Shown here piece by piece: positions 1 through 14,150 of a stretch of DNA of 56,778 nucleotides (position 1 is its first letter; the number at the start of each line of letters is the position of its first letter). A model generated the notes under the pieces. The model did not search any database, had not been told where the DNA came from, and saw nothing but the letters and a program-made list of their open reading frames with translations. Source of the stretch: a virus (Duplodnaviria; Caudoviricetes); IMG/VR virus record IMGVR_UViG_3300028840_002119, positions 1 to 56,778 of that record. One strand, given 5' to 3'. The position numbers were made by a program, and so were the translations under genes.

Positions 1-144
1 ATCCTCGTTTAAGATCGCCATCAACCTGCGCCATAAGTACATCTCGAATTTTGGTATCATCTCCATGCACCAGTACATCGCGTTTTCTTCGTTCCCGCGA
101 CGGATGTCCTTTTGCAATGCGGAGATTACATCGAACATTTGATA
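1..144. repeat. Terminal direct repeat (identical to 56635-56778), indicating a circular assembly
   Basis: The first 144 nt match the last 144 nt exactly and lie inside one CDS, so this is probably assembler overlap. Confidence 0.95.
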
Positions 145-174
145 CCCGTGGGCCTCAGTCCATAATCTTGCCAT
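1..174 (-). CDS. 5' part of RarA/MgsA C-terminal-domain-like protein (continues across the junction to 56191)
   Basis: ATG at 174 with upstream GGAGGTG SD gives MARLWTEAHGYQMFDVISALQK, in frame with ORF 56191-56772. Confidence 0.8.
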   Translation of the reverse strand, partial: MARLWTEAHGYQMFDVISALQKDIRRGNEENAMYWCMEMIPKFEMYLWRRLMAILNED

Positions 175-200
175 CTCTATTTTCACCTCCTGTTAAAGTC

Positions 201-272
201 TGACTGCCATCGTCAGTGAGTAGGCATCACCCTACCCAGACTAGGGGATGAAGATCATCCCCTAGTTTCGGC
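201..272 (-). ncRNA. Type II hammerhead ribozyme HHR1
   Basis: Minus strand reads GCC GAAA [CTAGGGGATGA-tct-TCATCCCCTAG] TC [TGGGTAGG-gtgatg-CCTACTCA] CTGACGA T GGC AGTCA. Full hammerhead core, predicted GUC cleavage between 239 and 238. Confidence 0.9.
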
Positions 273-653
273 TTAGACTCTCATTGCGCCATACTGTTCT
301 TCGAGCGCCGCAATTTCCTTGAAAAGATCGAGCGCCCCCTGGAAGACCGTTTCCCGTTGCAGATCGGATTCCAGGGTAGGATAGATCGAAAAGCGCACCA
401 CCTTAGTTTTCGTACCTCTGCGCGTTCCAGCGAAAATGAATTGATGCGCGCCGTTTTTCCAGCGGTATTCAATTTCTTTCTTCCCGACCATCGCCCGCAC
501 CCGCGCCCTGGCTAGGAATTTATCGCGTTGATCGGCCCACACTGCGACCACCTTCACCTGGCGGCGTGTGAATCGAATCGCCATCTCGCTCGCGCCGCAA
601 TCCCTCAAGAATTCTTCTGGCGTCATTTTGCCCGTCAACTTCGGTTCTGACAT
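273..653 (-). CDS. Hypothetical early protein (126 aa)
   Basis: ORF with ACACGGAGG SD; first gene after the repeated promoter; its stop codon abuts HHR1. Confidence 0.75.
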   Translation of the reverse strand: MSEPKLTGKMTPEEFLRDCGASEMAIRFTRRQVKVVAVWADQRDKFLARARVRAMVGKKEIEYRWKNGAHQFIFAGTRRGTKTKVVRFSIYPTLESDLQRETVFQGALDLFKEIAALEEQYGAMRV

Positions 654-686
654 CTCGTATCCTCCGTGTATTTTGATAGATCGGTC

Positions 687-757
687 TCTACTTTAATTAT
701 AGCAGATGCAACCTATTTTGTACATAGTAGAATCGTACTACACATTTAGAATACATT
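687..757 (-). promoter_or_regulatory. Early sigma70-type promoter, copy B of a 71-bp repeat, with LexA-like box
   Basis: TGTACA(719-724)-17 bp-TATAAT(696-701) with extended -10 TGn. Near-palindrome TAGTAG-N4-GTACTA at 725-740. 68/71 identical to 5263-5333. Confidence 0.75.
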
Positions 758-1349
758 GCTCGGCGTTATAGTTGGCCATTCCGAAGCCTTCGCCGTAGTC
801 TTCGGCCTGCGCCTCGATGTACTCGTCATCTTCTTCGCTGTCAGCCAGCTTGCCGAACACACGTTCTACTAGTGAGCGTTCCGGCTCTGGAATGTACGCA
901 CCCTCAACCAACAAATCATAGAGTTTGTCTATGTCCTGCGGATTGCCGTCGAACCATCCTTCTAGCCCGACGTCTGACAAGTCTTTTAGCGCAGCTCGAA
1001 AGTCAGCCTCAGACACAACGTACTGCGAAAAGCCCCATTGCGTGATCTTTCTCTGAAAAACCTCCAGCGCCTTCGATGCCAGCCATATCTGCGCGCGCCA
1101 CTGCTGTACCTCGCCCTCCAATTCCTTCAGCCGTTGCTGCTCGACCATGTTGCGTTCCAGATACGTCCAGTTGATAAGCCCCTCGAATTGCCACGCTACC
1201 CTTACGGCCATCGGAGTTTGAAGAAGCAGCCGACGCGCTTGCGCGTCGGCCTCCTGCTCGCTTGCTACATCAAACCTTCCTGCGATCTCCAATTTCTCCC
1301 AATCGACAAATTCGCCGGCGTGCCTGATCTTGCAGATTATGATAGTCAT
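738..1349 (-). CDS. Hypothetical protein
   Basis: ORF 738-1412; start likely 1349 (MTIIICK), directly after the upstream stop at 1351. Confidence 0.65.
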   Translation of the reverse strand: MTIIICKIRHAGEFVDWEKLEIAGRFDVASEQEADAQARRLLLQTPMAVRVAWQFEGLINWTYLERNMVEQQRLKELEGEVQQWRAQIWLASKALEVFQRKITQWGFSQYVVSEADFRAALKDLSDVGLEGWFDGNPQDIDKLYDLLVEGAYIPEPERSLVERVFGKLADSEEDDEYIEAQAEDYGEGFGMANYNAEQCILNV

Positions 1350-1350
1350 C

Positions 1351-1845
1351 TTAGACCACCTGCTCGTAAAACTCAGGGTAGAATCCCTCAGCACTGCACC
1401 AGACCACATCACTCGTGCTGATGTCCTGCGCCCATCCTACTCGCAACTCAGATTCCGTGAACCATACGGACCGGACTTCATCTTCCTCGTATTGGAGAGC
1501 GACGAAGGTCACAGTCGCCTTCGTGTGCGCCGCGATCGTGGCGCGTGTGACGTCCTGCATCACGCGATCTTTTATCGTGTCGCTGGCGTAGAATCCAGCG
1601 GCCTGCATCAGTGCGGTATGGATGGCATCTTTCGCGCCCTCGCGCGTGAGATAGTTGCCAGATCCACCCTTGTCAAAATCCCACCGAATTTCGTCAACCG
1701 TAGGATTCTCCATGAAGATCGTAATGGCGATCGTGCGAGCACTATACCGCTCGTAGACTTCCAACTGTTGATGTACGCCAATCTTCTCCCAAAGTGTATA
1801 GTCGCCCTTATGCCGCAGCCTGAACTGTAGTACCTTCGCTTCCAT
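1351..1845 (-). CDS. Hypothetical protein (164 aa)
   Basis: ORF with GGAGG SD, tightly packed in the operon. Confidence 0.7.
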   Translation of the reverse strand: MEAKVLQFRLRHKGDYTLWEKIGVHQQLEVYERYSARTIAITIFMENPTVDEIRWDFDKGGSGNYLTREGAKDAIHTALMQAAGFYASDTIKDRVMQDVTRATIAAHTKATVTFVALQYEEDEVRSVWFTESELRVGWAQDISTSDVVWCSAEGFYPEFYEQVV

Positions 1846-1847
1846 CC

Positions 1848-2021
1848 CTATTTGCCTCCGTAGTTTTCTTGACAGTATTCCAGGGAGTACGTTTCACGGC
1901 ACTTCCCGAACTTCGTCGGAATCCCGACGCCCTTGCTATCGCTGTCGCCGCCTCCACAAGCGACAAGCCATATAGCCATGATCACGAACAGCCCCAACTC
2001 TCGAACTCTTACCCGTTTCAT
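1848..2021 (-). CDS. Small putative lipoprotein
   Basis: MKRVRVRELGLFVIMAIWLVAC-GGG: basic N-terminus, hydrophobic stretch and lipobox LVAC; ACACGGAGGT SD. Confidence 0.65.
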   Translation of the reverse strand: MKRVRVRELGLFVIMAIWLVACGGGDSDSKGVGIPTKFGKCRETYSLEYCQENYGGK

Positions 2022-2050
2022 TTGACAAATACCTCCGTGTTTTTGGTTTC

Positions 2051-2120
2051 TGACTGCCATCGTCAGTGAGCAGGCATCACCCTACCCAGACGAGCGCGAT
2101 TACTCGCGACTCGTTTCGGC
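2051..2120 (-). ncRNA. Type II hammerhead ribozyme HHR2
   Basis: GCC GAAA [CGAG-t-CGCGA gtaa TCGCG CTCG] TC [TGGGTAGG gtgatg CCTGCTCA] CTGACGA T GGC AGTCA; predicted cleavage 2089/2088. Confidence 0.9.
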
Positions 2121-2459
2121 CTGTACTTCCGTGAGTATGAATCCAGTTTCACGCGCCATGCCTCGTTCGATCAAAAGCGCCTCTGGCTCGGTGCTGTCAA
2201 AGTAATAGTCTCCACCCTTGCCATACGAACCAAACTTCCACCATTGCGCTCCGTACCTGATGACTGGCTGAGAAACAACCAGCCGCCGCATCTTCCCTGG
2301 ACGTACCGCGTAGAGCGTGAGCGATCGCCCTGTCTCTGGGGCCGTCAAGATCACCTTGACGGCCCTGCCATAAGGTACTGTGCCAGCGGCTTCACTAAGT
2401 ACCTGGCCAAAATTCGTAGTGCGTGTCACATCCTTGCAAATCTCAGTTACGTTTCCCAT
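2100..2459 (-). CDS. Hypothetical protein (119 aa); its last codons encode the 5' half of HHR2
   Basis: ORF coupled to radC; ends GCC GAA ACG AGT CGC GAG TAA. Confidence 0.7.
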   Translation of the reverse strand: MGNVTEICKDVTRTTNFGQVLSEAAGTVPYGRAVKVILTAPETGRSLTLYAVRPGKMRRLVVSQPVIRYGAQWWKFGSYGKGGDYYFDSTEPEALLIERGMARETGFILTEVQAETSRE

Positions 2460-2460
2460 C

Positions 2461-3135
2461 TTACAAATCCTCGAACCCTAGCGCCCGTTCGCGTAGACTC
2501 ACGAAGGTCGCGTGTCCAACTATGACATGATCGAGCACGTCAATTTCCATAGTAATCCCTGCCTGCACTAAGCGCCTGGTCAGTGCGACGTCTTCGGGTG
2601 ATGGATTCGCATCGCCTGAAGGATGGTTATGTCCAACGATGATACTCTTCACGTTTCTGCGCACCGCGCCCCTGAATACCTCTGCGATGCGGACAATCGA
2701 AGTATTGAGCGTGCCCCTATACAAAATCTCACGTTCGACAATTCGATTGCGCGTGTCCAGGTAGAGCACTACAAAACACTCTTGCTCCTCGCGCCCAATG
2801 TATCCCATAAGAAGGTTTGCCGCGTCACCTGGTGAGCGAATATGATACTTCTCGCCCATCTGCGACTCAAGCACCCTGCGCCCCAATTCAAGTGCGGCCT
2901 TAATTCTAGCGGCCTGCGCCTTTCCAACCCCATGCACCGCTGTCAGTTGAGCGACCTCTGCCGTCGCGATCTGCGCCAGCCCGCCGAATTCCTTCATCAA
3001 CGTGATTGCCGTGTCCATCGCGTTACCCGTTCCCAAAATGCTCGCGAGAAGTTCGGTGCCTGATACCGCCATCGCCCCTGCCTCGCATACCCGATTCACT
3101 GGTCTTTCTTCCTTTGGATATTCTCGTACCAACAT
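2461..3135 (-). CDS. radC: RadC-family JAB-domain protein with N-terminal HhH
   Basis: ELLASILGTG, HhH HGVGKAQA, QECFVVLYLDTRN, GTLN, HNHPSGDANPSPED and LDHVIVG motifs. Confidence 0.93.
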   Translation of the reverse strand: MLVREYPKEERPVNRVCEAGAMAVSGTELLASILGTGNAMDTAITLMKEFGGLAQIATAEVAQLTAVHGVGKAQAARIKAALELGRRVLESQMGEKYHIRSPGDAANLLMGYIGREEQECFVVLYLDTRNRIVEREILYRGTLNTSIVRIAEVFRGAVRRNVKSIIVGHNHPSGDANPSPEDVALTRRLVQAGITMEIDVLDHVIVGHATFVSLRERALGFEDL

Positions 3136-3147
3136 TTTAGCAGCCCT

Positions 3148-3468
3148 CTAAAATTTAACGCCTGTGAGATTCAAGAGAAAATCTAGTCCCATTTTTTGCA
3201 CGATCACGGCCAGCGCCGCGTCTGCTGTCTCTGCAACCTTATTCGTGTGGACGACCTGGAATACCGCTTCGCCTATATGCGGGATGGCCCCCTCATACGT
3301 ACCGATCGTGGCAGTGCCATCCTTGCGGACCTCGATATAGTTACCATCCTCGCCACCCTTGTAAAAGAAGTACGTCCCTCGATTGTGCAACTGAATTTCA
3401 TCCAACACCCAATTTGCAATACTGCTTAATGTGACCTGACGCCATGCTTCGTATTCGTTCGCGTTCAT
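3148..3468 (-). CDS. Hypothetical protein
   Basis: ORF 3148-3576; start MNANEYE at 3468 has a GGAGGT SD. Confidence 0.65.
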   Translation of the reverse strand: MNANEYEAWRQVTLSSIANWVLDEIQLHNRGTYFFYKGGEDGNYIEVRKDGTATIGTYEGAIPHIGEAVFQVVHTNKVAETADAALAVIVQKMGLDFLLNLTGVKF

Positions 3469-3559
3469 TGTAACTACCTCCGATTTGTGATATACTGGAG
3501 GTGTCTCTGTAGCACCTCCGTGTTGCAGACCGAAGCGCGAGGACAGCCCGCCTCGCGCT

Positions 3560-4456
3560 TCACTTTGTTTCCCCATAGATCAAAGGACTCGGACCTTTGG
3601 GGAAGTGAATAATGTGATGTTGTAACAGCCCGCGATATACACTCCCGACTACCCGCGCCTCATCTTGCAGTCCAGCGTCAACCAGGTCGCGGATGTACCG
3701 CTCTAACGCCAATGCTACGTTGTTGGCCTTCCTCATTCCTGGGAGATCATCGTTAGTGGGGATGATACGTTCTGGCCGCGCCTCTTCCTCGGCTTTCCTC
3801 GTATCGACCACCGTCGTCATAAATGCGGCCATATCGAACATAGCCTCTTGTGCCTGCTCTTCGAGGAGCTTGCTGCACAGTTGTCGGAATTCCTTGATAC
3901 GCGGCTTCGCCGTGGTCGCGATGTACCGCAGCGCGATTCTCTGACGATTGCTATCCAAGTCCTTGAGCGCGTATGCGTACTTGATGCCCATCTGTCCATC
4001 GCGTACTAGCTTCTGCGCTTCTGGCACCGTTTCGAGAAGGGCGAGGCGCAATCGAATCCGTTGAATTGGCACACTCGCCTCAATCGCCAGCCTGCTGACG
4101 TCCCAACCAAATCGGTCAATCCGTTTCTGGTACGCCTGCGCCTCTTCGATCGGATTCAATTCGGCCCGTTGGATGTTTTCGAGCAACATCACCCCACTTG
4201 CCCGTTCATCGTCCATATCGCGCACCAGCGCCGGAATGGTTTCGGCCTTCAGCAGCTTGTGTGCGCGCCAGCGCCGTTCACCGGCTACGATCTGGAATCC
4301 AGCACCAAAAGGGCGCACCGTGATCGGCTGGGCAAGTCCATGCTTGCGAATACTCTCAGCCAATTCCGCGATGCTGTTTTTGTCGAATCTCTCGCGATCA
4401 TTGTCGCCAGGGATGATCTGCGAGACTGGAACTTCCTGCACCGTTTCTAATGTCAT
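3560..4456 (-). CDS. parB: ParB/Spo0J-family protein 1 (CTPase domain plus HTH)
   Basis: LAESIRKHGLAQPITVR, AGERRWRA arginine patch, ENIQRAELNPIEEA. Confidence 0.92.
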   Translation of the reverse strand: MTLETVQEVPVSQIIPGDNDRERFDKNSIAELAESIRKHGLAQPITVRPFGAGFQIVAGERRWRAHKLLKAETIPALVRDMDDERASGVMLLENIQRAELNPIEEAQAYQKRIDRFGWDVSRLAIEASVPIQRIRLRLALLETVPEAQKLVRDGQMGIKYAYALKDLDSNRQRIALRYIATTAKPRIKEFRQLCSKLLEEQAQEAMFDMAAFMTTVVDTRKAEEEARPERIIPTNDDLPGMRKANNVALALERYIRDLVDAGLQDEARVVGSVYRGLLQHHIIHFPKGPSPLIYGETK

Positions 4457-4485
4457 CGTGTTTTTACCTCCGTGTTTAGATTTAC

Positions 4486-4554
4486 TGACTTGCCATCGTC
4501 AGAGAATAGGTTGTCATCCTATCCTGACTGCGGACTCGCGTCCGCAGTTTCGGC
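4486..4554 (-). ncRNA. Type II hammerhead ribozyme HHR3
   Basis: GCC GAAA [CTGCGGAC gcga GTCCGCAG] TC [AGGATAGG atgacaa CCTATTCT] CTGACGA T GGC AAGTCA; predicted cleavage 4526/4525. Confidence 0.92.
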
Positions 4555-4568
4555 TCTTTGAATTCGCA

Positions 4569-4862
4569 CTAATTCCACCCGAATCGTTCGAGCAATTCTT
4601 GGGCGTCTCGGATATACCCTTCGTCACCGGCCTCGATCGCGTGCATCCAATTATCGAAGGTCGCGTCTGCCATCGTGAGCGCAGATTTTGAATCGTGCCC
4701 AAAATCCTCGATGTCTGATAGCAGCCACTCCCAAGCGACCAGCGGCGTCAAAACCTCGTCGCCAATCCCTTCCGAATCCATCTCCCGCAAAGTCAGCGCC
4801 AGCGCCATCTTCGCGTTCTCAGTGCTAAACATCTCAAAAGCAGTCAAAGTATCTGTCGTCAT
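4569..4862 (-). CDS. Hypothetical acidic protein (97 aa) flanked by HHR4 and HHR3
   Basis: ORF with ACACGGAGGT SD. Confidence 0.75.
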   Translation of the reverse strand: MTTDTLTAFEMFSTENAKMALALTLREMDSEGIGDEVLTPLVAWEWLLSDIEDFGHDSKSALTMADATFDNWMHAIEAGDEGYIRDAQELLERFGWN

Positions 4863-4898
4863 CGTGATAACCTCCGTGTTTTGGTTTTTTTGGATTAC

Positions 4899-4967
4899 TG
4901 ACTAGCCCTCGTCAGAGGATAGGTTGTCATCCTATCCTGACTGCGGGCCTGCGCCCGCAGTTTCGGC
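4899..4967 (-). ncRNA. Type II hammerhead ribozyme HHR4
   Basis: GCC GAAA [CTGCGGGC gcag GCCCGCAG] TC [AGGATAGG atgacaa CCTATCCT] CTGACGA G GGC TAGTCA; predicted cleavage 4939/4938. Confidence 0.92.
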
Positions 4968-5228
4968 TTATAATCCGCGACCAGCGAAAATATCCATCAG
5001 TTTTTTGAATCCAATTTCGCTGCCCCTCATCCACTGGTCAAGTCCCGAGCGTTTTAGCTGCTCTCGAAGAAATTCAATCCGTTCTTCCGTGAGCGGGCCG
5101 TGTGTCGCCTCTACCTTTTCAATGTCATGTCGAAGTAGTTGCAGGATATGAATCGCGCCAGCGATCTCGACTTCCCAATCGCCAAGAACGTCCGATGCCC
5201 GAAAATTGTCTGCGCCTGTGTTTTTCAT
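4968..5228 (-). CDS. Hypothetical early protein (86 aa)
   Basis: First ORF after promoter copy A; GGGGAG SD; its stop codon abuts HHR4. Confidence 0.7.
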   Translation of the reverse strand: MKNTGADNFRASDVLGDWEVEIAGAIHILQLLRHDIEKVEATHGPLTEERIEFLREQLKRSGLDQWMRGSEIGFKKLMDIFAGRGL

Positions 5229-5262
5229 CTCTGTATCTCCCCTTAAATTTAGTATATGAATG

Positions 5263-5333
5263 TCTACTTTAATTATAGCAGATGCAACTTATTTTGTACA
5301 TAGTAGATTGGTACTACACATTTAGAATACATT
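5263..5333 (-). promoter_or_regulatory. Early sigma70-type promoter, copy A of the 71-bp repeat
   Basis: TATAAT at 5272-5277 with TGn; same layout as 687-757. Confidence 0.75.
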
Positions 5334-5381
5334 TTTTGCCCATAATTCAGGCGTCAATGCGCTCGTGTGTGTATATAAAGG

Positions 5382-5421
5382 AAAAACCGGAAAGATAGAT
5401 CATGTCTACCTTTCCGGTTTT
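5382..5421. terminator. Intrinsic terminator, probably bidirectional
   Basis: AAAACCGGAAAG...CTTTCCGGTTTT hairpin downstream of the holin-like operon. Confidence 0.7.
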
Positions 5422-5524
5422 ACGATATCCAATTACATCGGGCATCCGGCCCGAATCCAGGCGACCAGCACCCACAACCAAAACAACCAGCTAAACAACC
5501 CTGCCAGGACGAGGACGGTCCAGC

Positions 5525-5962
5525 CTATGGCAATCCAGCACCGCTTTCCGATAGCGCCCAGATCAGTGCGCCGGCCAGCGCGACGACGAGGGCAGCGCCT
5601 ATTATTCTGACAGTCCACCGTAATCCTTTCAGCCACGGTTCCCACTCGGAGAGGATTGCGGTCCGACCTTCCTTAAACGTGGAAAAATCAGCCCGCAAGT
5701 CCTTGACGTCGCGTGTCGCGTCATGAACATCGGTGCTCAAGATCGACACGGACGCTCCGAACTCTGAGCACTTGAAGCGCAGATCGTCAATAAGCTGCTG
5801 CTGCTCGTCGTCGCGTTTCTGTAGGCGTGACTGTTCTTCGGCCAGCGAATCCAGCCGCGCCAGGATTTGCGGTATCAGTTTGGCCTCTGCGCTTATCTGC
5901 CGCAAGTGGTCAAGGATCACCGTCATAGGGTCAAATGAAGGTGGGACTGGAGCTTGCGTCAC
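5525..5962 (-). CDS. Coiled-coil protein with C-terminal TM helix (lysis-cassette type)
   Basis: Heptad-rich body, hydrophobic IIGAALVVALAGALIWAL; follows the holin-like gene. Confidence 0.65.
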   Translation of the reverse strand: MTQAPVPPSFDPMTVILDHLRQISAEAKLIPQILARLDSLAEEQSRLQKRDDEQQQLIDDLRFKCSEFGASVSILSTDVHDATRDVKDLRADFSTFKEGRTAILSEWEPWLKGLRWTVRIIGAALVVALAGALIWALSESGAGLP

Positions 5963-5963
5963 G

Positions 5964-6428
5964 TTACTCGCCTATGGTGCGTTCCTCGATGACTGGCTCA
6001 GGCAATGCCTCAAGCTCACCCCACTTACGCGGTTTGATGATACCCTTGTAAGCCGCCTGCGATGCAGCCCAGGTGAGGAAGCCTTTGGCCAATGCCTGCC
6101 AGTAGGGTTCAATCCGTAGCCACACATCGGGCGGGACGAGCTGAAGCGCGATCTCTGCCAGCAACGGCAGCCCGATACTACAGCCGAACACGATCCAGGC
6201 CTTCTTTTTCTTCGGCAACTCCGTGAACTTTGGAAATTTCTCAAAGAGGAAGGCGAGGACAAAACCAGTACCCGCGCCACCCGCAAACATCCCCAACACT
6301 TCAACCAGAGAGGGCGTGTCTATTGGAATCGGAGGGATGTCACCGGACTGCGCCAACAACACAGCAGGAAAGATGAACAGCGCGAGGATGACGATCACAC
6401 TTACGAACAAACGGCGAATCATAGTCAA
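5964..6428 (-). CDS. Putative holin (multi-TM)
   Basis: 3-4 hydrophobic segments, charged C-terminus, AAGGAG SD. Confidence 0.6.
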   Translation of the reverse strand: MTMIRRLFVSVIVILALFIFPAVLLAQSGDIPPIPIDTPSLVEVLGMFAGGAGTGFVLAFLFEKFPKFTELPKKKKAWIVFGCSIGLPLLAEIALQLVPPDVWLRIEPYWQALAKGFLTWAASQAAYKGIIKPRKWGELEALPEPVIEERTIGE

Positions 6429-6443
6429 ACTCCTTTCTATGGC

Positions 6444-6475
6444 AAAAAAAAATAGCTGGTCACAGTTGACCAGCC
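6444..6475 (-). terminator. Leader terminator ahead of the holin-like gene
   Basis: GGCTGGTCA-actg-TGACCAGCT followed by A and a T9 tract. Confidence 0.8.
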
Positions 6476-6512
6476 TCGGAAACTAAGTCTCAGTCAGGCG
6501 TTTCATGTTATG

Positions 6513-6692
6513 TCAAGTCTCGCCTGTGGACGGTGGGGGGCTTCTGTAGCGTGTGTCAGTTGTCACGGTCAATTCCTGAAGGTCGCCACCCTTGAGTGAA
6601 ACCCTGAAGGTGACTTCTCCCCAGTGGCCGGACTCGCTCAACTCCGTGAGCTTCTTCAACACAATCTTCACCGCGTCACGTATCGAGATCAT
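6513..6692 (-). CDS. Small 59-aa ORF, probably leaderless (not in the ORF track)
   Basis: Hand translation MISIRDAVKIVLKKLTELSESGHWGEVTFRVSLKGGDLQELTVTTDTRYRSPPPSTGET; ATG lies 7 nt after the -10. Confidence 0.55.
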   Translation of the reverse strand: MISIRDAVKIVLKKLTELSESGHWGEVTFRVSLKGGDLQELTVTTDTRYRSPPPSTGET

Positions 6693-6698
6693 ACTTCA

Positions 6699-6727
6699 AT
6701 TATAGTGAAAACTCTAACCATTCGCAA
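6699..6727 (-). promoter_or_regulatory. sigma70-type promoter
   Basis: TTGCGA-17 bp-TATAAT. Confidence 0.7.
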
Positions 6728-6749
6728 GGGCCAAAAGCACCGCGCCAAG

Positions 6750-6765
6750 TATTTCCTGGGAAATA
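6750..6765. promoter_or_regulatory. Noc/parS-like palindrome 1 (TATTTCCTGGGAAATA)
   Basis: One of 7 exact copies; intergenic. Confidence 0.75.
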
Positions 6766-6791
6766 CCTGGCGCGCGCGGGATCTGCCCCGT

Positions 6792-7271
6792 TTAGCTGTC
6801 ATCTCGTAGATAGACCTCGATTGTACCATCCGCCATCATAACGTAGACGCCTGGGTCCGAAAACGGGCAGTGCATACTCTCGACCTCTGCATCATTGCGG
6901 ACGACCATCAGAGGGACAAGGTGCGGATCGTACCTTTGGTAAGGCGTAGGCAAAGACTCCAGCCAGTCGACGACGTTGGGCATTTTGACCACCCACATCA
7001 TTGTGGGGGCCGGTCCGAACTCCGCGATCTTCGCCTTCGCTGCTTTGATGGCCGCGAGGATGTCATCGCCATCGGTGGCCACGTCAGTCGTTCCAGTAGA
7101 CGGCCGTACCGTCATTACATCCTCAAAAGTCTCAAGCTGAAACCCGATGTCAATCTTCGGCCAGTGCCAAGTCATGCACTTATGCACCTCACAGAAGCGA
7201 TACTGACACCATTCCGGCCTGAGTACCACAAACTTCGACGGCTCGCACCATTCACACGTCCACTTAATCAC
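6792..7271 (-). CDS. Hypothetical protein with N-terminal Cys/His motifs
   Basis: CEWC...CEVH; overlaps the end of the ThiF gene. Confidence 0.6.
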   Translation of the reverse strand: MIKWTCEWCEPSKFVVLRPEWCQYRFCEVHKCMTWHWPKIDIGFQLETFEDVMTVRPSTGTTDVATDGDDILAAIKAAKAKIAEFGPAPTMMWVVKMPNVVDWLESLPTPYQRYDPHLVPLMVVRNDAEVESMHCPFSDPGVYVMMADGTIEVYLRDDS

Positions 7272-8064
7272 GATTTTCCTCCTGTTCTTCGGTCAAGATC
7301 GGCAAACTACGCGCCGAACCACTAACCAGATCGAAGTACGTTGCATAGATGTCCAAGTCCTGACTCAAAATCAGGCGATACAGGTATTGCGAAGCGAAGG
7401 TAGCCACGGCCTGGTTGACCATTAGGCTCTGGGCATCGCGTAGGGTCAACTCCGCGCAACTTTCGGCCATCTTCTCTACAGGGTCATCGACCAGCAACTC
7501 AGGATGTTGGATGGAAGGCAGTGGTAAACCCGAGCAAAAATCCAGCGTGAGTTCTGGTTTTTCGAGATCATACCGATTGCCAAGCAGCACTTGGCCAGCG
7601 TGTTCCGCGTTTCCGCAATCCAGCCACCAGAACTGATATGCTGGCGCGCGACTCGCGATGCTCCTGCGTGCGGCGGCATTGTCCACGCACCCAACGACGA
7701 TGCACAAATCCTTCCCGTTATTGCGATACATCTGCGTGTAGTTTTCAACGCCATCGACGATAGCCTTGATCTGCAAACCGAATGCGGCGTTGTATCTCCG
7801 CATCAGGGTCCACGCCTTTGCCGCACCTATCTCGACGGGTGAGAAATTCTGACGACCGATGTTCTTGTGCTCTACGATGTCAGGGTCAATAAAGGTCAGG
7901 CTTACAGGCAACTGCCGTTGCTCGTGGGCGTGATATGCGAGACGCGCCAGGTGCAGCGCGACGAATGAACCCGTACCCCCACAGCCGACCAGCACGATCT
8001 TGACCTGCTCGATCTCGCCCACCATAATCCTGCGTAGTCTCTGAGTTGTTAGCTTAATCTCCAC
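7264..8064 (-). CDS. ThiF/E1-like protein (PRTRC system)
   Basis: VLVGCGGTGS, IDPDIVEHKNIGRQNF, GCVDNAAAR, WWLDCGN, ESCAE, QSLMVNQ. Confidence 0.92.
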   Translation of the reverse strand: MEIKLTTQRLRRIMVGEIEQVKIVLVGCGGTGSFVALHLARLAYHAHEQRQLPVSLTFIDPDIVEHKNIGRQNFSPVEIGAAKAWTLMRRYNAAFGLQIKAIVDGVENYTQMYRNNGKDLCIVVGCVDNAAARRSIASRAPAYQFWWLDCGNAEHAGQVLLGNRYDLEKPELTLDFCSGLPLPSIQHPELLVDDPVEKMAESCAELTLRDAQSLMVNQAVATFASQYLYRLILSQDLDIYATYFDLVSGSARSLPILTEEQEENRD

Positions 8065-8620
8065 GAATTGCCTCCCCTGAAAGTTCGAGACGTCCGGCCT
8101 CTCCGACCATCATCGCCTTTCCTGCCTCTGCATACATCTTGACCAGTTGCAGGCTCGCCCGTTGCACCGTGGGCATCCGGTCTTGTGGCGGCGTTGCCAG
8201 CATCACCACGGCCAAACGGCCAATTTCATCCAGCGCCCGATAGACATCCTCAGCGATAGACGTAGGCAGCGTCTTAGGCTTGTCTCCATCACCCTCGACG
8301 AAGAACCAGTCGTCAAGTAGATCGTGAGACTTAACACTGAATCCATAGATGTACTTCCCGTTGCGATACCTGACGACTTCCGCGAAGACGTCGGCCAGCG
8401 TGAACATCCCTGCCCGCAACTGCTTGTACGTCCCTGCCCTCTTCGTTTTCAGGTAGCCATCGCCGTCAATCCGACACAGTGACCGGAGCACTGCTTTCAC
8501 GGCCATGCTGAACGGCCCAACCTTTTCGCCCGCGATGTCTCTGCGCGTGTCGATGTTGTCCAAGTGTATCGCGTCCACCTGGCGCCAGCCTTCCCCAAAG
8601 TATTCTTGCACACCCTTCAT
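8054..8620 (-). CDS. Hypothetical protein inserted between the JAB and E1 genes
   Basis: Overlapping start/stop codons with both neighbours. Confidence 0.7.
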   Translation of the reverse strand: MKGVQEYFGEGWRQVDAIHLDNIDTRRDIAGEKVGPFSMAVKAVLRSLCRIDGDGYLKTKRAGTYKQLRAGMFTLADVFAEVVRYRNGKYIYGFSVKSHDLLDDWFFVEGDGDKPKTLPTSIAEDVYRALDEIGRLAVVMLATPPQDRMPTVQRASLQLVKMYAEAGKAMMVGEAGRLELSGEAIRGD

Positions 8621-9222
8621 CGCCTCTTTACCTCCGCGAGTTTTGTCTTACCGAAAAACAACATTTCAAGGGGTACGGTCCAGAAGTCACCATAAACGCC
8701 TACGCGCAACTGTATCTGTGGTCGGGTGAAGATGGTGCCAATCACTCCATACAAGCGGAACCCTACCTCGTCACGATCGTCTATAGGACTGAAATTCGCC
8801 GCGCCGTCGCAGTGGCTATGGATGTCCATGATCACATCCGCGCCACCATCACCGACGCACACAGCATGGGTTTCTCCAACATTCTGACGCGGCCTTACTA
8901 TTCTCGCGTTCAACCCATCCATGCGGATATGGTAAAGCGCCTCTTTCGGAGATGCTGTCGCCACCGATCGAGCATCGTGCAAGATCGAATCGAGCAAGTA
9001 TGCCGGCAATTCCCCTTTCCTCAGTTGGACCTTTGGCCTCAAGAGCGGCAGTCCCACGATCTTACACGTCGCCAGGGGGACGATCGCCAGCAGATAGGCG
9101 TTACGAGCGACCTTGAAAACCCCGTTACCGGCCATCACGTAGTGGTAAGTATGGCCGTCGCCAAAATCCGGCTCATGTCCAGAATGGATGATGTACCCTG
9201 CCGGATTCCTTATCTTCAACAT
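8617..9222 (-). CDS. JAB/MPN metalloprotease (PRTRC protein A-like)
   Basis: YVMAGNGVF; DIHSHCDGAANFSPIDDRDE (HxH...S..D). Confidence 0.9.
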   Translation of the reverse strand: MLKIRNPAGYIIHSGHEPDFGDGHTYHYVMAGNGVFKVARNAYLLAIVPLATCKIVGLPLLRPKVQLRKGELPAYLLDSILHDARSVATASPKEALYHIRMDGLNARIVRPRQNVGETHAVCVGDGGADVIMDIHSHCDGAANFSPIDDRDEVGFRLYGVIGTIFTRPQIQLRVGVYGDFWTVPLEMLFFGKTKLAEVKRR

Positions 9223-9935
9223 ACCTCACCTACCTTCGCCTTCATCAGAAGATCGTCAACCGGATAGGCTTCAGCTCCAGACAAGGCTTGCCATTGCCGG
9301 AGCACGTTGTCAGGATGCGCTCGTGATTTACCATTTGCAAAATCCAGATTGAAGACGCTCTCGAAGAACAGCGCCAGCGCCGCGTGAATCGTCGTGCGAC
9401 TGCACAAAGGCTGGTCAGTGTTTCCCCAACAGATGCGCCCTGTCTCTGCGACGTTGGGCAAGGGCGCGTGAAACAGATCGTCACCCTCAGTCGTCGGGCG
9501 CTTTGCGACGGCCCACAGCCAATAGTCGTACCCCTTACCTGCAAACACCAAACCAGGAAGGACGATATCAAAAACATCAGGGAATCCCTCTGACTTGACA
9601 TTCATTTTGCGTCTCTGCGGGGGCACGTAGATACCGATGGACTCCTCGCCATCCTCGCGCCTGTAGAACAGGCAATCGGCGGGAAGTAGGCCGCTGGTCA
9701 ACGGCAGACCAGAGAACGCCACGGCCAGCGCTTCGGGACTGATCTCGTAAGCACTCACGGCCTCGCCGCGCTCGAACTTCGTCAGGATGATCGTTTCTTC
9801 GTACAAATCAACGCGGCCCTGGATTTTCTGATAGCTCGCGTCTGATAATGCCGCATCGCCATTCAGCGCAATCTCAAGCGCACTATAGGCATCATAAACG
9901 TTTACGTGTTCTGTGTTCGTGTTTTCGTCTGTCAT
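9216..9935 (-). CDS. Prokaryotic E2-like protein (PRTRC protein B-like)
   Basis: LPGLVF, LFHAPLPNV...GRICWGN (catalytic Cys), FFESVFN. Confidence 0.85.
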   Translation of the reverse strand: MTDENTNTEHVNVYDAYSALEIALNGDAALSDASYQKIQGRVDLYEETIILTKFERGEAVSAYEISPEALAVAFSGLPLTSGLLPADCLFYRREDGEESIGIYVPPQRRKMNVKSEGFPDVFDIVLPGLVFAGKGYDYWLWAVAKRPTTEGDDLFHAPLPNVAETGRICWGNTDQPLCSRTTIHAALALFFESVFNLDFANGKSRAHPDNVLRQWQALSGAEAYPVDDLLMKAKVGEVC

Positions 9936-10819
9936 GTCTCTGCACTCTCCAACTTCACTATGTGGTCAGCCATTGGAGCGAGATGGAAGATCGGCCCGAT
10001 CAGCTCCAAGACCTTCATTGTTGCCTGTACTGCATCCTTGCCCTTGAACCAGTCGATGTATGCCTGCAACTGGGCAAGTTTTGGTTTCGCGGCCCGATAG
10101 TCGAGCGCATACATCTCGACGGCCCAAGCGGTCCAGCCATTGCGTGTTTCCCAATCCTCGTATTCGCCATCCCACATCGCGGGAACGTTGTCGATGAAGG
10201 AATTGCCAGAGGCCCGCGTGAAGCACTGATAAGCAACTGCCATCCCATTGAAAGGGACCGGCAGCGCGTTCAACTGCTCGAAGATGCGGCTCTGGTCAGT
10301 CACTACCTTGTACTGCGTGAATCCCTTACGCGCCAGCCACCCCAGGGCATCGTTGTAGCGTTCGTCTGCGTATGCCTGCATGTGCTCGTATTCAGGCTGT
10401 AGCCCAGAGATCGCCGCTGCACCGATCGGTGCGTAGTGGTCTTCGACATGATGCACCGGACACACTTCCCACGGTATACCATAAGACTCAGGCCAGATCG
10501 GAAGCCACAATGCAAACGTCTCGCCTCCCCACACAACTTCGTCATACGCTTCGAGATCAACCGGAAAAAGCTCGTTATGAATCCGGCCTAACAGTTGCAC
10601 CTCTACGTCATACGGCCCACCTGTTGGCTTGCGACTTTCAGGGAAGATTTGACCATACAACCTGCGCGCGTTTCGATATGCGGATAGATACCCATCATCG
10701 ACCGCACCGATCATCGTACTATAGCTCAACAAGCGGTATCTATCGAGCAGCCGCTTGAAGGTGCGTAGTTTCAGAACCCTGGCGGCAGGCGGCTGGGTTT
10801 GGCTGATAATGCCAAGCAT
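9932..10819 (-). CDS. PRTRC-associated helical protein (protein F-like by position)
   Basis: Position between the Ubl and E2 genes; no clear motif. Confidence 0.6.
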   Translation of the reverse strand: MLGIISQTQPPAARVLKLRTFKRLLDRYRLLSYSTMIGAVDDGYLSAYRNARRLYGQIFPESRKPTGGPYDVEVQLLGRIHNELFPVDLEAYDEVVWGGETFALWLPIWPESYGIPWEVCPVHHVEDHYAPIGAAAISGLQPEYEHMQAYADERYNDALGWLARKGFTQYKVVTDQSRIFEQLNALPVPFNGMAVAYQCFTRASGNSFIDNVPAMWDGEYEDWETRNGWTAWAVEMYALDYRAAKPKLAQLQAYIDWFKGKDAVQATMKVLELIGPIFHLAPMADHIVKLESAET

Positions 10820-11010
10820 CGCTCTACGACCTCCCCTGATTTGATGACGTGTGTCGTCAGTTCATTGCTATGCTGTTCGAGTTGTTGTATCACGGCGGCT
10901 AGTTGTGTAGCGTCGTGCTTGAACTTGACCAGCGCCATAAGTTGACTTACAGCCTCCATGTGTAGAGGCTGTAAGTCTTCAAGACGAGCAACTATATCAG
11001 TGCTGTTCAT
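10771..11010 (-). CDS. Hypothetical protein (79 aa)
   Basis: AAGGGGAG SD; coupled to the Ubl gene. Confidence 0.5.
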   Translation of the reverse strand: MNSTDIVARLEDLQPLHMEAVSQLMALVKFKHDATQLAAVIQQLEQHSNELTTHVIKSGEVVERCLALSAKPSRLPPGF

Positions 11011-11197
11011 CGCTCCCCTTCGTAGTCGCTTTCTTAACGAAGGTCACAACATTCAAATCTCCGTCCTTCGACTTCTTCACCGTGGCCGCAGCAACTTCCG
11101 CGAAGTGTGGCGTCAACTGCCGCCGAACCTCTTCTACGGTCAACTCGTCGTTTTCGTCAACGTACTCATAATCCTGATACTTATACTTCGTCGCCAT
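10997..11197 (-). CDS. Prokaryotic ubiquitin-like protein (PRTRC protein C-like)
   Basis: Pattern D...LTVEEVR..L..HFAEVAAATV...VTFVKKATTKG, plus a 5-aa tail. Confidence 0.8.
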   Translation of the reverse strand: MATKYKYQDYEYVDENDELTVEEVRRQLTPHFAEVAAATVKKSKDGDLNVVTFVKKATTKGSDEQH

Positions 11198-11381
11198 CTG
11201 TCTGCACCTCCACTAGTAGTAGAACGTTCACGGACAAGCGTTGCATCTTGCCGTTATCGACGGGCTTTACAAAAGCCGTCTGATAGTCGGTAGAGAAGAA
11301 GCGCACCTGCCCTACCATTTCACCATACCGCACATAGTCACCCACATCGAAGGGAATCCCCAACTCACTCGGCTTCGTCAT
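11181..11381 (-). CDS. Small SH3-like beta protein
   Basis: FDVGDYVRY..MVGQV pattern; overlaps both neighbours. Confidence 0.55.
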   Translation of the reverse strand: MTKPSELGIPFDVGDYVRYGEMVGQVRFFSTDYQTAFVKPVDNGKMQRLSVNVLLLVEVQTDGDEV

Positions 11382-12852
11382 CGTCTGCCGCCTTCGTTCC
11401 CTGCACCAGTTCAGGGAAGTACCCTTCGAGCAATTCTGTCAGCAGCCACTCGATACGATCGAACTTGCCACTCTTGAACGCTGTGGGGCCAGTCTCGCCA
11501 ATCGAACCCTGGACGTCGCGCTCGCGGAGATCAGTACCAGGCATAATCAGCAAGGTTACGCGCACCGGACCAGGGACGTGAGGCTTTGGTGTCGGCGGCG
11601 GGAGTACGATAGTTGGCTTTGCCCGCGTGTGAGCAGACACCTGGACGGTAGCGGCTGGCGGCGTCGTGTCGCCCGTTTGAGCTAGAACCGTGGGTGCGCC
11701 CGCGATCTCTGCTTCCTCGACGGTCTCTTCGGTCTGGAATTCTGTCGGCTCAAGTCCGCCAGCACGCTCGCGGCAGTCAGGGCAGATCGCCTTCATCATC
11801 CGCTCGCTCTGTAACCAGCCCGTTGCCTCGCTCGACGTTGATACCATGTCACGATAGGCCCGATTGCATCCTGAACATTGCGCCCACGCCTGCGGCTTAT
11901 CGACCAGCAGCCAAGTATCGTTCAGCTTGTCGCGTAGCAGCTCATAAGTCTGCTTCGCCTTCTGCGGACCTTGTATCACGATCTTGTGCTTGCGGATTTT
12001 GGCTTGCCGGCAGCGCAGGTCAGTACAACGCCACTCGCGCCCAATCTTGACGTGATCTTTGCAACCTTCACATATCCGCGTGTCCTTCTCACAGGCGTCC
12101 CACTTCGCATCGAAGCCCACGTCGTCAGGGGTCAGGCTATACGTGTTTTCACGGACGTGCCTTGCGACGGCGGCGCTCAATTCCTTCACCGTTCGATACT
12201 GACCAGGGACGCCAGTGCCCAGGATGCTGAGGAAGACTTGCCACTTCTCGTCCATATCGACCAGGGGCAGCAGCGCCCGACCGTGGCGGCCTGTAATATC
12301 GCCATCGCGGATCAGCCCTTGCACCTTCACCGGAAGACGAAGCAAGCGGATAAGATTTGCGACCGCACTCTGCGACAACCCCCACCGTTCACCGATCTTC
12401 GTTTGACTCAACTTAAAGTCGGTGATTGCGCGATCCAGGGCGACGGCCCGTTCGATGTCACTGATACCGTCGCGCTTCTCGTTTTCGGCCCATGCGATGT
12501 CTGCCATATCGCTATCACTCAACATCCGCAGCTCAACCGGAAAAGTCTCGTAATGCGCGTTGCTCTGCGCTATCTCCATGAAGGCCCGCAGACGACGATG
12601 GCCGACACTGATCTGCACCATTGCCTTTTCGTGCGCCCGCAAAAACTCATTCCAGTCTTCGTCTACCCCTGACACGATGATCACTTCGCCGTCAAGGACG
12701 ATTCGAGCGGGAGGCACCTGGATCAGCCCGCTTGTCTCTGGTAAGACTTCGCGCAATTCGAGTATCGCGTCCCTCAACTCGGTTAGGTCGCCATACACCA
12801 TGCGCGTCTGGTAAGGATTGTCTTCAATCCTTTTCAACGGAATTCTAAACAT
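11365..12852 (-). CDS. ParB-family protein 2 with Noc-like HTH and Cys-rich C-terminus (PRTRC ParB)
   Basis: Start MFRIPLKRIEDNPYQTR at 12852 (GAGGTGA SD); VGHRRLRA; ENEKRDGISDIE; GLSQSAVANLIRLLRLP; DITGRHGRAL. Confidence 0.88.
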   Translation of the reverse strand: MFRIPLKRIEDNPYQTRMVYGDLTELRDAILELREVLPETSGLIQVPPARIVLDGEVIIVSGVDEDWNEFLRAHEKAMVQISVGHRRLRAFMEIAQSNAHYETFPVELRMLSDSDMADIAWAENEKRDGISDIERAVALDRAITDFKLSQTKIGERWGLSQSAVANLIRLLRLPVKVQGLIRDGDITGRHGRALLPLVDMDEKWQVFLSILGTGVPGQYRTVKELSAAVARHVRENTYSLTPDDVGFDAKWDACEKDTRICEGCKDHVKIGREWRCTDLRCRQAKIRKHKIVIQGPQKAKQTYELLRDKLNDTWLLVDKPQAWAQCSGCNRAYRDMVSTSSEATGWLQSERMMKAICPDCRERAGGLEPTEFQTEETVEEAEIAGAPTVLAQTGDTTPPAATVQVSAHTRAKPTIVLPPPTPKPHVPGPVRVTLLIMPGTDLRERDVQGSIGETGPTAFKSGKFDRIEWLLTELLEGYFPELVQGTKAADDDEAE

Positions 12853-12870
12853 AGCCCTTTCACCTCGTGT

Positions 12871-12886
12871 TATTTCCTGGGAAATA
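12871..12886. promoter_or_regulatory. Noc/parS-like palindrome 2, directly upstream of the Noc-like parB SD
   Basis: TATTTCCTGGGAAATA. Confidence 0.75.
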
Positions 12887-12956
12887 TTGAAATGCGGGAA
12901 GGTGGCAAAGCTGCCACCCTCCCCATGAAACCGACCTCGGTAGTCGGCCAACACCT

Positions 12957-14150
12957 CTATCCTCGTATCTGTGTAGACAACGCGGCCAGCGCCTTGCTCC
13001 AATCGCCGGACGCCTTTGCCGCCGTTATCTCTGTAGAGACTGGCGGGTGCTTTTCTACATCTGGCGACACCCGTCCGGCCCCCTTCAACTGCCGTACCCG
13101 CGTCCAAAATTCCGTTGGACCTGGCACCGGCTCTTGAACTTCATCGGCCTGCGGAGTGACGCCTTCCGCATCCTCTCGCGGGAAGTAGTTATCCAGATCA
13201 GAGACGTCTTCGATCACCTCGCTTTCTTCATCTGGCGGCGGGTCGATGATGTCAGGCCGCGCCAGCACATTGTCAATCCAGAGCGCGTGTAACTCTACGC
13301 CCTTCATTCCGCTTTCACGGGCAACTTCCTCGTATGCGTTGCGTGCGTGCTGAATCGCCTTGAACTTACCGCGATCAAAGCCCCACTCGATGGCCTCGGC
13401 GTCGTCATTGAACGAAGTCGGGATAGCCTCTTGAAGTGCATCGCGTTCTTCTTCGGTCAGGCCGTCATAAACGGCGTGCTCGATCTTCTCAGGCATATCC
13501 AGCCACGTACCAGAATCGTCCCACAGGATGGGCACTTCCGGAAACGTGCGCCCACGTCGCGCCCATACGACCTTGATACCGCGCACGTCATCGGCACGCT
13601 TGACGATTTGCAGCTTCAAGTTCAAGCAGCGGAGCAAGCGCACCAACTCAGTCTTACTCACCGTCGCGCGCGTTTCCTTCTCGCCCTGACCATCGCGCCC
13701 ATCGTTGAGATGGTAAATCCAGAGTACATCCGTACCCCACCGCGTAACCACATCCTGCAACTGCGCCATCGCGATAGCCTTTGGTGCAAATGCAGCGGCG
13801 AGATTCTTTTCGCGCCCAGTTTTGTGCGCCTGCATCCCTTCGACTACCAGCGGTTTGATGATGGCCGTCAGGCTGTCCGTGACGATTGTCCGCACCCCAC
13901 TCCCTGGCATATTGGCCATGAGCAGTTGGGCGATGCGATCTGTGTCAACGTGGTCGGCGGGATTGTCGCTCAATTCATAGACAAGCGCATCGGTCACATC
14001 GAGCACTTCACGGAAGCGATGATCTGCATCGATCGGCAGAATCGGACTCCGCATCCGCATCGCAAAGGTGGTTTTCCCTCCACCTGGATACCCGACTAAC
14101 CCCCACAAGCGCGGGGGATAGTCGGTCTTCACCATTTTATTGAACGGCAT
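12957..14150 (-). CDS. P-loop NTPase, Sak4/AAA_24-like recombination protein
   Basis: Walker A GYPGGGKTT; Walker B TIVTDSLT. Confidence 0.7.
   Translation of the reverse strand: MPFNKMVKTDYPPRLWGLVGYPGGGKTTFAMRMRSPILPIDADHRFREVLDVTDALVYELSDNPADHVDTDRIAQLLMANMPGSGVRTIVTDSLTAIIKPLVVEGMQAHKTGREKNLAAAFAPKAIAMAQLQDVVTRWGTDVLWIYHLNDGRDGQGEKETRATVSKTELVRLLRCLNLKLQIVKRADDVRGIKVVWARRGRTFPEVPILWDDSGTWLDMPEKIEHAVYDGLTEEERDALQEAIPTSFNDDAEAIEWGFDRGKFKAIQHARNAYEEVARESGMKGVELHALWIDNVLARPDIIDPPPDEESEVIEDVSDLDNYFPREDAEGVTPQADEVQEPVPGPTEFWTRVRQLKGAGRVSPDVEKHPPVSTEITAAKASGDWSKALAALSTQIRG

Follow-up and report, generated by a model that had tools for sequence, protein, structure and literature searches.

By analyzing the complete IMG/VR virus record IMGVR_UViG_3300028840_002119 (56,778 bp; hereafter the window, that is the whole stretch of DNA), we found four minus-strand elements that are most probably functional type II hammerhead self-cleaving ribozymes, transcribed in two leftward non-structural operons. 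They are numbered HH1 to HH4 in order of rising coordinate (Table 1). The first and last 144 bp of the window are identical, and since it encodes a large terminase, a portal, a head protease, a major head protein and a tape measure, we conclude that it belongs to a tailed phage. A blastn search of the INPHARED phage collection with positions 1-5400 gave no match. The relatives of the window's ParB in prokaryote genomes are distant, with at most 46% identity, and we therefore name no host. DNA identical to the window was found, with no variants, in contigs from three metagenome DNA runs made from sediment and seawater, two of which may be its source, and no RNA run was listed as containing the phage.

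Read on the minus strand, the four copies share the layout GCC-GAAAC-hairpin-GUC-hairpin-CUGACGA-N-GGC-(N)-AGUCAG, and this exact pattern matched four times in the window and not once in any of 100 shuffles. With a looser type II descriptor (GAAA, UH and CUGANGA, a stem III of at least 3 bp, a stem I of at least 4 bp and a stem II of at least 2 bp), we searched both strands of the window and recovered only the same four elements, while 30 shuffled windows gave 4 matches in total. First, the core strand C3-U4-G5-A6-N7-G8-A9 is intact and reads CUGACGA in all four copies, each of which also has GAAA and GU-C, with stem III closed by the pair A15.1-U16.1. Second, the stems follow one another in the order II-III-I-II, where both stem I and stem III have closing loops and stem II is open, which is the type II topology. 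Third, stem III pairs in every copy (12 bp in HH1, 5+5 bp with a bulge in HH2, and 9 bp in both HH3 and HH4) with a sequence that is different in each of them, next to a stem I of 8 bp and a stem II of 3 bp (GCC/GGC). Single-sequence folding formed stems III and I in each copy, with z-scores from -3.5 to -5.2.

Comparing the copies with each other, we observed that stem I exists in two sequence families, HH1/HH2 and HH3/HH4, with one G-U/Watson-Crick change within each. In the first family a U-A pair of stem I becomes U-G, and in the second a G-U pair becomes G-C, accompanied in stem III by a compensatory change from A-U to G-C. Loop I contains UGAU or UGAC, which is complementary to the GUCA found immediately 3' of stem II. 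For example, HH4 has the stem I loop AUGACAA, the tail UAGUCAG and an inserted G after CUGACGA, and the tail of HH3 is AAGUCAG. The loop GUGAUG together with the tail AGUCA recurs in 9 of 11 parsed elements, two of them being the window's own. The original prediction had described this anatomy: four minus-strand elements with the GCC-GAAA ... CUGACGA-N-GGC layout, a stem III that differs yet pairs in each copy, two families of stem I with G-U variants, a loop I UGAY able to pair with a conserved GUCA, and cuts at the four bonds listed in Table 1. All of these points were recovered in our analysis, the bonds being those 3' of the C of GUC.

Then, we compared the elements with covariance models. 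At the gathering threshold, Rfam gave no match over the whole window. When matches were reported by E-value, the model Hammerhead_II (RF02276) scored HH2 and HH1 slightly below its cut-off of 37 bits (Table 1), with E-values of about 7e-5 on 5.4 kb and of 7-9e-4 on the whole window. HH3 and HH4 had no Rfam hammerhead match even at E values up to 10, as searched in a 531-nt stretch (4460-4990). The check with Hammerhead_II that the original prediction had put forward was answered by two near-threshold matches, and HH3 and HH4 went unreported. The gathering cut-off is a curated threshold of the model and not a property of the ribozyme. It was passed by just 3 of the 11 copies parsed by pattern and stems in another record (L027). 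We also gathered phage elements from IMG/VR, in more than 111 stretches, with a pattern derived from the window that had no stem requirement beyond two pairs. Among the matches listed, proper stems I and III stood beside the core in 99 of 111 loci. By aligning 13 of these phage elements of equal length, with the hammerhead structure imposed, we built a covariance model (R1); 11 of the 13 seeds score above the Rfam cut-off. With filters off, R1 retrieved all four copies, from HH3 as the best to HH4 as the lowest (Table 1), and the next match in the window reached 12.9 bits. The G-C pair 10.1-11.1 is present in the four copies, but it is preceded, after A9, by one extra nucleotide (U in three copies and G in one). 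Rfam aligns this nucleotide as an insertion, and the 11 seed elements above the Rfam cut-off have it too. An extra nucleotide at that place is tolerated in viroid hammerheads.

As relatives of the phage we took seven IMG/VR contigs whose ParB is 54-70% identical to that of the window, and three of them carry hammerheads (L113, L114 and L115; Table 1). All five hammerheads of L114 are above the Rfam cut-off (37.3-51.5 bits), and the five of L115, which were scored with R1, gave 38.3-58.4 bits. In L113, the four hammerheads have the core UUGAUAA (U3 and A8) and no extra nucleotide before stem II, so that the entire hammerhead set of this contig changed core type together. Such U3-A8 core covariation was already reported from nature (PMC3088659). 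We then aligned 12 elements (the four of the window, five of L114 and three of L113) by fitting them to R1. Standard pairs occupied 99.4% of the cells versus 30-44% when the 3' partner was slid, and both sides had changed in 10 of the 15 pairs. The window shares with L114/L115 and L113 the parB-radC operon, the GCC/GGC stem II and the stop-to-Shine-Dalgarno (SD) placement, and in each of the window, L113 and L114 parB has a hammerhead immediately upstream. However, L113 and L114 differ from the window in their stems, in their pseudoknots (GGCC in L114, GAUC or GACC in L113) and in how many other copies there are and where they lie. In L114, the homologue of the gene that follows HH4 stands between two hammerheads, radC is flanked by hammerheads in L113 and not in the window, and the genes found between hammerheads differ among the window, L113 and L114. 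The remaining contigs, L116-L119 (ParB 54-65%), had no hammerhead by Rfam or R1. A promoter before parB was considered as a substitute in these relatives and dropped as too weak, since of the three contigs scanned (L116, L118 and L119) L119 alone had a promoter-like site, and just one.

To place the four elements among phage type II hammerheads at large, we used 120 unique elements, including those of the window and of L114/L115. In 114 of the 120, a sense open reading frame (ORF) with 50 codons or more has its end in the interval from -40 to the cut site, versus 33 for the antisense analogue, and an SD with a start codon follows within 80 nt downstream in 95, versus 17. In 45 of these 114 cases, the stop codon of the upstream gene is adjacent to the first G of stem II or includes it, and in 68 it falls within -2 to +1. 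A ribosome terminating there would therefore sit over the ribozyme's 5' half. The base preceding GCC is A in 93 of the 120. At the extra position before stem II, 113 of the 120 have U, in a collection whose pattern demanded a nucleotide there. In 85 of the 120 elements, loop I and the tail share a pseudoknot with 4 or more Watson-Crick pairs, in 44 distinct pairings, whereas dealing the tails to other elements (200 trials) gave a mean of 23.3 and a maximum of 34. Together, the near-threshold Rfam scores of two copies, the R1 scores of all four, the covariation among relatives and the family-wide covariation of the pseudoknot agree with the original prediction that these are type II hammerheads with a pseudoknot.

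Beside these figures, we noticed that L027 (record G006, 111,982 bp) has 22 type II hammerheads by R1 within 12.8 kb (1152-13936, plus strand), that is about one per 580 nt on one strand, which makes its punctuation far denser than that of the window. Twister-P5 ribozymes were seen in two viral contigs that are unrelated (L076:2365-2419 and L008:1434-1487, minus strand, with 69.0 and 64.9 bits, respectively), at no more than about 1 kb from type II hammerheads, which fits the known co-occurrence.

All four elements of the window are sense to the flanking minus-strand ORFs and have an SD downstream, as predicted. The accompanying claim that they sit between the end of one gene and the next SD needs to be corrected for HH2, which overlaps the end of ORF 2100-2459. 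Indeed, the 5' half of HH2 consists of the last seven codons and the stop of this ORF, with the TAA 11 nt ahead of the cut, inside the loop of stem III. HH4 and HH1 begin, with their first G, directly after the TAA stops of ORFs 4968-5228 and 273-653, respectively, and HH3 begins 14 nt past a TAG stop. The distance from stem II to the next start codon is 31-42 nt and includes a GGAGG SD.

We infer minus-strand transcription of this region from the orientation of the ORFs and from two promoter-like sites with 10 of 12 matches and a TG before the -10, both in a repeated 44-nt block (Table 1). The right-hand site is likely the transcript start for HH4, HH3 and HH2, and the left-hand one likely that for ORF 273-653 and HH1. 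These transcripts may be early, as the original prediction called them. The likeness of the two blocks (687-730 and 5263-5306) continues upstream (TGTATTCTAAATGTGTAGTAC) and may include an operator. Two other readings of the elements were considered and rejected. Against intrinsic terminators, stem III lacks a U-run after it, and the minus strand between 5270 and 1 showed no terminator-like site. Against stem III palindromes as ParB binding sites, their sequences are different in every copy.

Based on this arrangement, we propose that each ribozyme would fold as its intergenic spacer is transcribed, taking an active fold that has closed hairpins at stems III and I, a stem II of 3 bp that stays open and, as a brace, the 4-bp loop I/GUCA pseudoknot, and would then cut 3' of the C of GUC. 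The upstream product would keep its stop codon and have at its end the hairpin of stem III and a 2',3'-cyclic phosphate, and the downstream product would begin at the hairpin of stem I with a 5'-OH, not far ahead of the SD. Since just three base pairs of stem II join the two halves, the products should separate at once, which would make the cut effectively irreversible. The polycistronic transcripts would in this way give hairpin-capped segments with lengths of 413, 2437 and 1850 nt. Judging from hammerhead chemistry and from the anatomy of the locus, cleavage in vivo and an effect on stability or translation are plausible. The original prediction's further idea, that insulated units made in this way would set stability and stoichiometry with no need of host RNases, is plausible too. 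A comparable arrangement is known from synthetic insulators of the RiboJ type, in which a self-cleaving ribozyme and a hairpin placed before the SD remove the upstream RNA context, as would happen here. RiboJ-type parts are engineered from a satellite-RNA hammerhead, whereas the phage elements would be putative natural insulators.

Several observations weigh against reading the four elements as functional ribozymes. First, none of the four copies reaches the RF02276 cut-off of 37 bits, and HH3 and HH4 are left unreported by Rfam. Second, the seeds of R1 were picked by a pattern derived from the window, which makes the core part of its scores non-independent, the stem part being independent. 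Third, the 12-element alignment was fitted to the structure of the model, which favors pairing, and the three pairs of stem II are invariant in it and offer no covariation. Fourth, one extra nucleotide stands between A9 and stem II, and the pseudoknots are short, with four Watson-Crick pairs in HH3/HH4 (UGAC/GUCA) and three plus a G-U in HH1/HH2 (UGAU/GUCA). Fifth, four ParB relatives are without hammerheads, and the elements are therefore dispensable for the gene set. Finally, in every one of the four copies, the minimum free energy fold and the centroid fold have the core CUGAC paired with the tail GUCAG. This pairing excludes the pseudoknot as well as catalysis and would therefore represent an inactive form.

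The core/tail hairpin could mean that the ribozymes are conditional. In that case, the tail GUCAG would toggle between two partners, loop I in the active pseudoknot and C3-C7 in an inactive hairpin of 5 bp, and cleavage would be partial or gated by whatever occupies the tail, such as a 30S subunit at the SD 10-20 nt downstream. Besides the agreement of both folds, N7 is C and the last base of the tail is G in all four copies. However, the window copies are paralogous, so that their agreement is not independent, and UGAY/GUCA pseudoknots resemble the core UGAN by construction. When we considered the hairpin as a conserved trait of the window's class, it was not supported: of the 9 other hammerheads with GGC-AGUCA, only 3 have a G opposite C3. 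In addition, the tails of L113 and L114 show no complementarity to the core. Because of these two results, the CUGAC/GUCAG pairing in the window is probably a side effect of a pseudoknot sequence resembling the core, and we regard a toggling tail as unlikely for HH1 to HH4.

A sister class of short-loop hammerheads found in other phages lends some credit to conditional ribozymes. Its stem I has 7 bp and a loop of 3 nt, leaving no room for a pseudoknot, and its tail CNUCAG comes right after GGC (members in L010, L025, L029, L030, L068, L074, L079, L083 and loci from L200 upward). The position N7 and its tail partner N' form a Watson-Crick pair in all 46 unique hammerheads of this class (C:G in 35, U:A in 10 and A:U in 1), versus 17 of 56 where the same pattern occurs outside hammerheads. 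We therefore take the conserved 6-bp helix that sequesters C3-G8 to be real in the short-loop class. This helix excludes the active core and may be a lock or a switch. The two short-loop copies of L029 were not called at the Rfam cut-off. We found no description of the core/tail helix in the main texts of the literature, and it may be that the short-loop class, the extra nucleotide or the stop-codon placement is already visible in the supplementary alignments and figures of PMC3088659. In a broader form of the same idea, the elements would not cut constitutively but act as gated switches, the decision on the cut would fall to a ribosome that terminates upstream or initiates downstream, and cleavage would be coupled to translation. 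For the window, we give this coupling a low probability as well.

Compared with functional ribozymes, a role at the DNA level or a state of decaying relics appears far less probable. Here, the copies would be repeats at module boundaries that promote phage recombination, for which RNA cleavage is not needed. Long near-identical stretches within HH1/HH2 and within HH3/HH4 fit with this idea, as do the differing genes between the hammerheads of the window, L113 and L114 and the relatives without elements. However, all the positions of the catalytic core are intact in the four copies, the variation is mostly in stems and compensatory, which DNA repeats would not need, and both strand and placement are strictly sense and intergenic. 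Lastly, it is very improbable that pairs of hammerheads excise a segment (for example the 413-nt HH4-HH3 piece with its 97-codon ORF) for ligation into circular or spliced RNA: such a piece would have a 5'-OH at one end and a 2',3'-cyclic phosphate at the other, a hybrid hammerhead could be rebuilt from these ends via GCC/GGC, and the possibility is raised in PMC3088659, but the same paper reports that circular or spliced products were not detected, a 3-bp stem II favors dissociation and no sequence feature specifically calls for ligation.

Table 1. Positions of the hammerheads, promoter-like sites and neighboring genes in the window, and hammerheads of related contigs.
Feature	Sequence	Position	Strand	Remarks
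HH4, type II hammerhead	window	4898..4967	minus	cleavage bond 4939/4938; R1 37.4 bits; no Rfam match
HH3, type II hammerhead	window	4485..4554	minus	cleavage bond 4526/4525; R1 42.1 bits; no Rfam match
HH2, type II hammerhead	window	2050..2120	minus	cleavage bond 2089/2088; RF02276 36.7 bits; R1 40.0 bits
HH1, type II hammerhead	window	200..272	minus	cleavage bond 239/238; RF02276 36.4 bits; R1 41.4 bits
Promoter-like site, TGTACA, 17 nt, TATAAT, TG before -10	window	5263..5306	minus	consensus match only
Second copy of the promoter-like block, one mismatch between copies	window	687..730	minus	consensus match only
parB (ParB_N and HTH_ParB domains)	window	3560..4456	minus	first gene after HH3
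radC-like gene (RadC JAB domain)	window	2461..3135	minus	within the HH3-HH2 segment
Small lipoprotein-like gene, lipoprotein-type signal LVAC	window	2021-1848	minus	next after HH2
Gene with MgsA/RarA C-terminal domain	window	crosses window start	minus	next after HH1
5 hammerheads each	L114, L115		same strand as parB	ParB 70%
4 hammerheads	L113	5649-5723, 5904-5976, 7077-7150, 7883-7959	plus	ParB 69%

The flanking genes named in the original prediction as encoding ParB, a RarA-like protein and a lipoprotein have the domains or the signal expected for each (Table 1), and several further proteins of the two operons had no family match. Between parB and the next gene (3469-3561, minus strand), we observed two hairpins. 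One is a GC-rich hairpin of 11 bp at the parB stop, with no U-run on the minus strand. In the other, an SD-like GGAGGUG pairs with CACCUCC (anti-SD) upstream of the real SD, and this hairpin may be a translational control element. We also noticed that the SD before the starts at 4862, 4456, 2021 and 653 lies within a longer conserved word, (A)CACGGAGG(T), which occurs in L113 and L114 too and exceeds what SD pairing alone needs.

Natural type II hammerheads with a loop I/3'-tail pseudoknot and a short stem II are described by Perreault et al. 2011 (PMC3088659), where a pseudoknot of at least 4 pairs is stated for the majority of them and multiple hammerheads are found to flank genes or short gene blocks in prophages. 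The elements of the window are the same as this type and RF02276 in their CUGANGA/GAAA/UH core, closed stems I and III, short open stem II, loop I/3'-tail pseudoknot and several sense copies flanking phage genes. They differ from RF02276 in scoring at or below its cut-off with two copies unseen, in the extra nucleotide and in the UGAY/GUCA pseudoknot. The same paper proposes that hammerheads may process long phage transcripts into mRNAs of operon or gene length, so that the transcript-processing idea is not new, and it reports in vivo self-cleavage by three tandem hammerheads of A. tumefaciens upon their expression in E. coli. For D. vulgaris, cleavage in vivo was likewise reported for type II hammerheads that lie in phage-like contexts (PMC8782182), and a 2019 review (PMC6765202) still calls the role of bacterial and phage hammerheads largely elusive. 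Beyond these three papers, we found in the literature no functional work on phage type II hammerheads.

The four elements are thus a correct rediscovery in a new phage, the kind of element and the processing idea having been described before, and the finding leaves knowledge of the hammerhead class unchanged. What the phage offers is a clean and compact example, in which four intact putative ribozymes fill the stop-to-SD gaps of one gene module. Together with its close relatives, which have different copies, a core variant or no hammerhead at all, it makes up a comparative set in which the effects of such punctuation on mRNA stability and on protein ratios could be studied.

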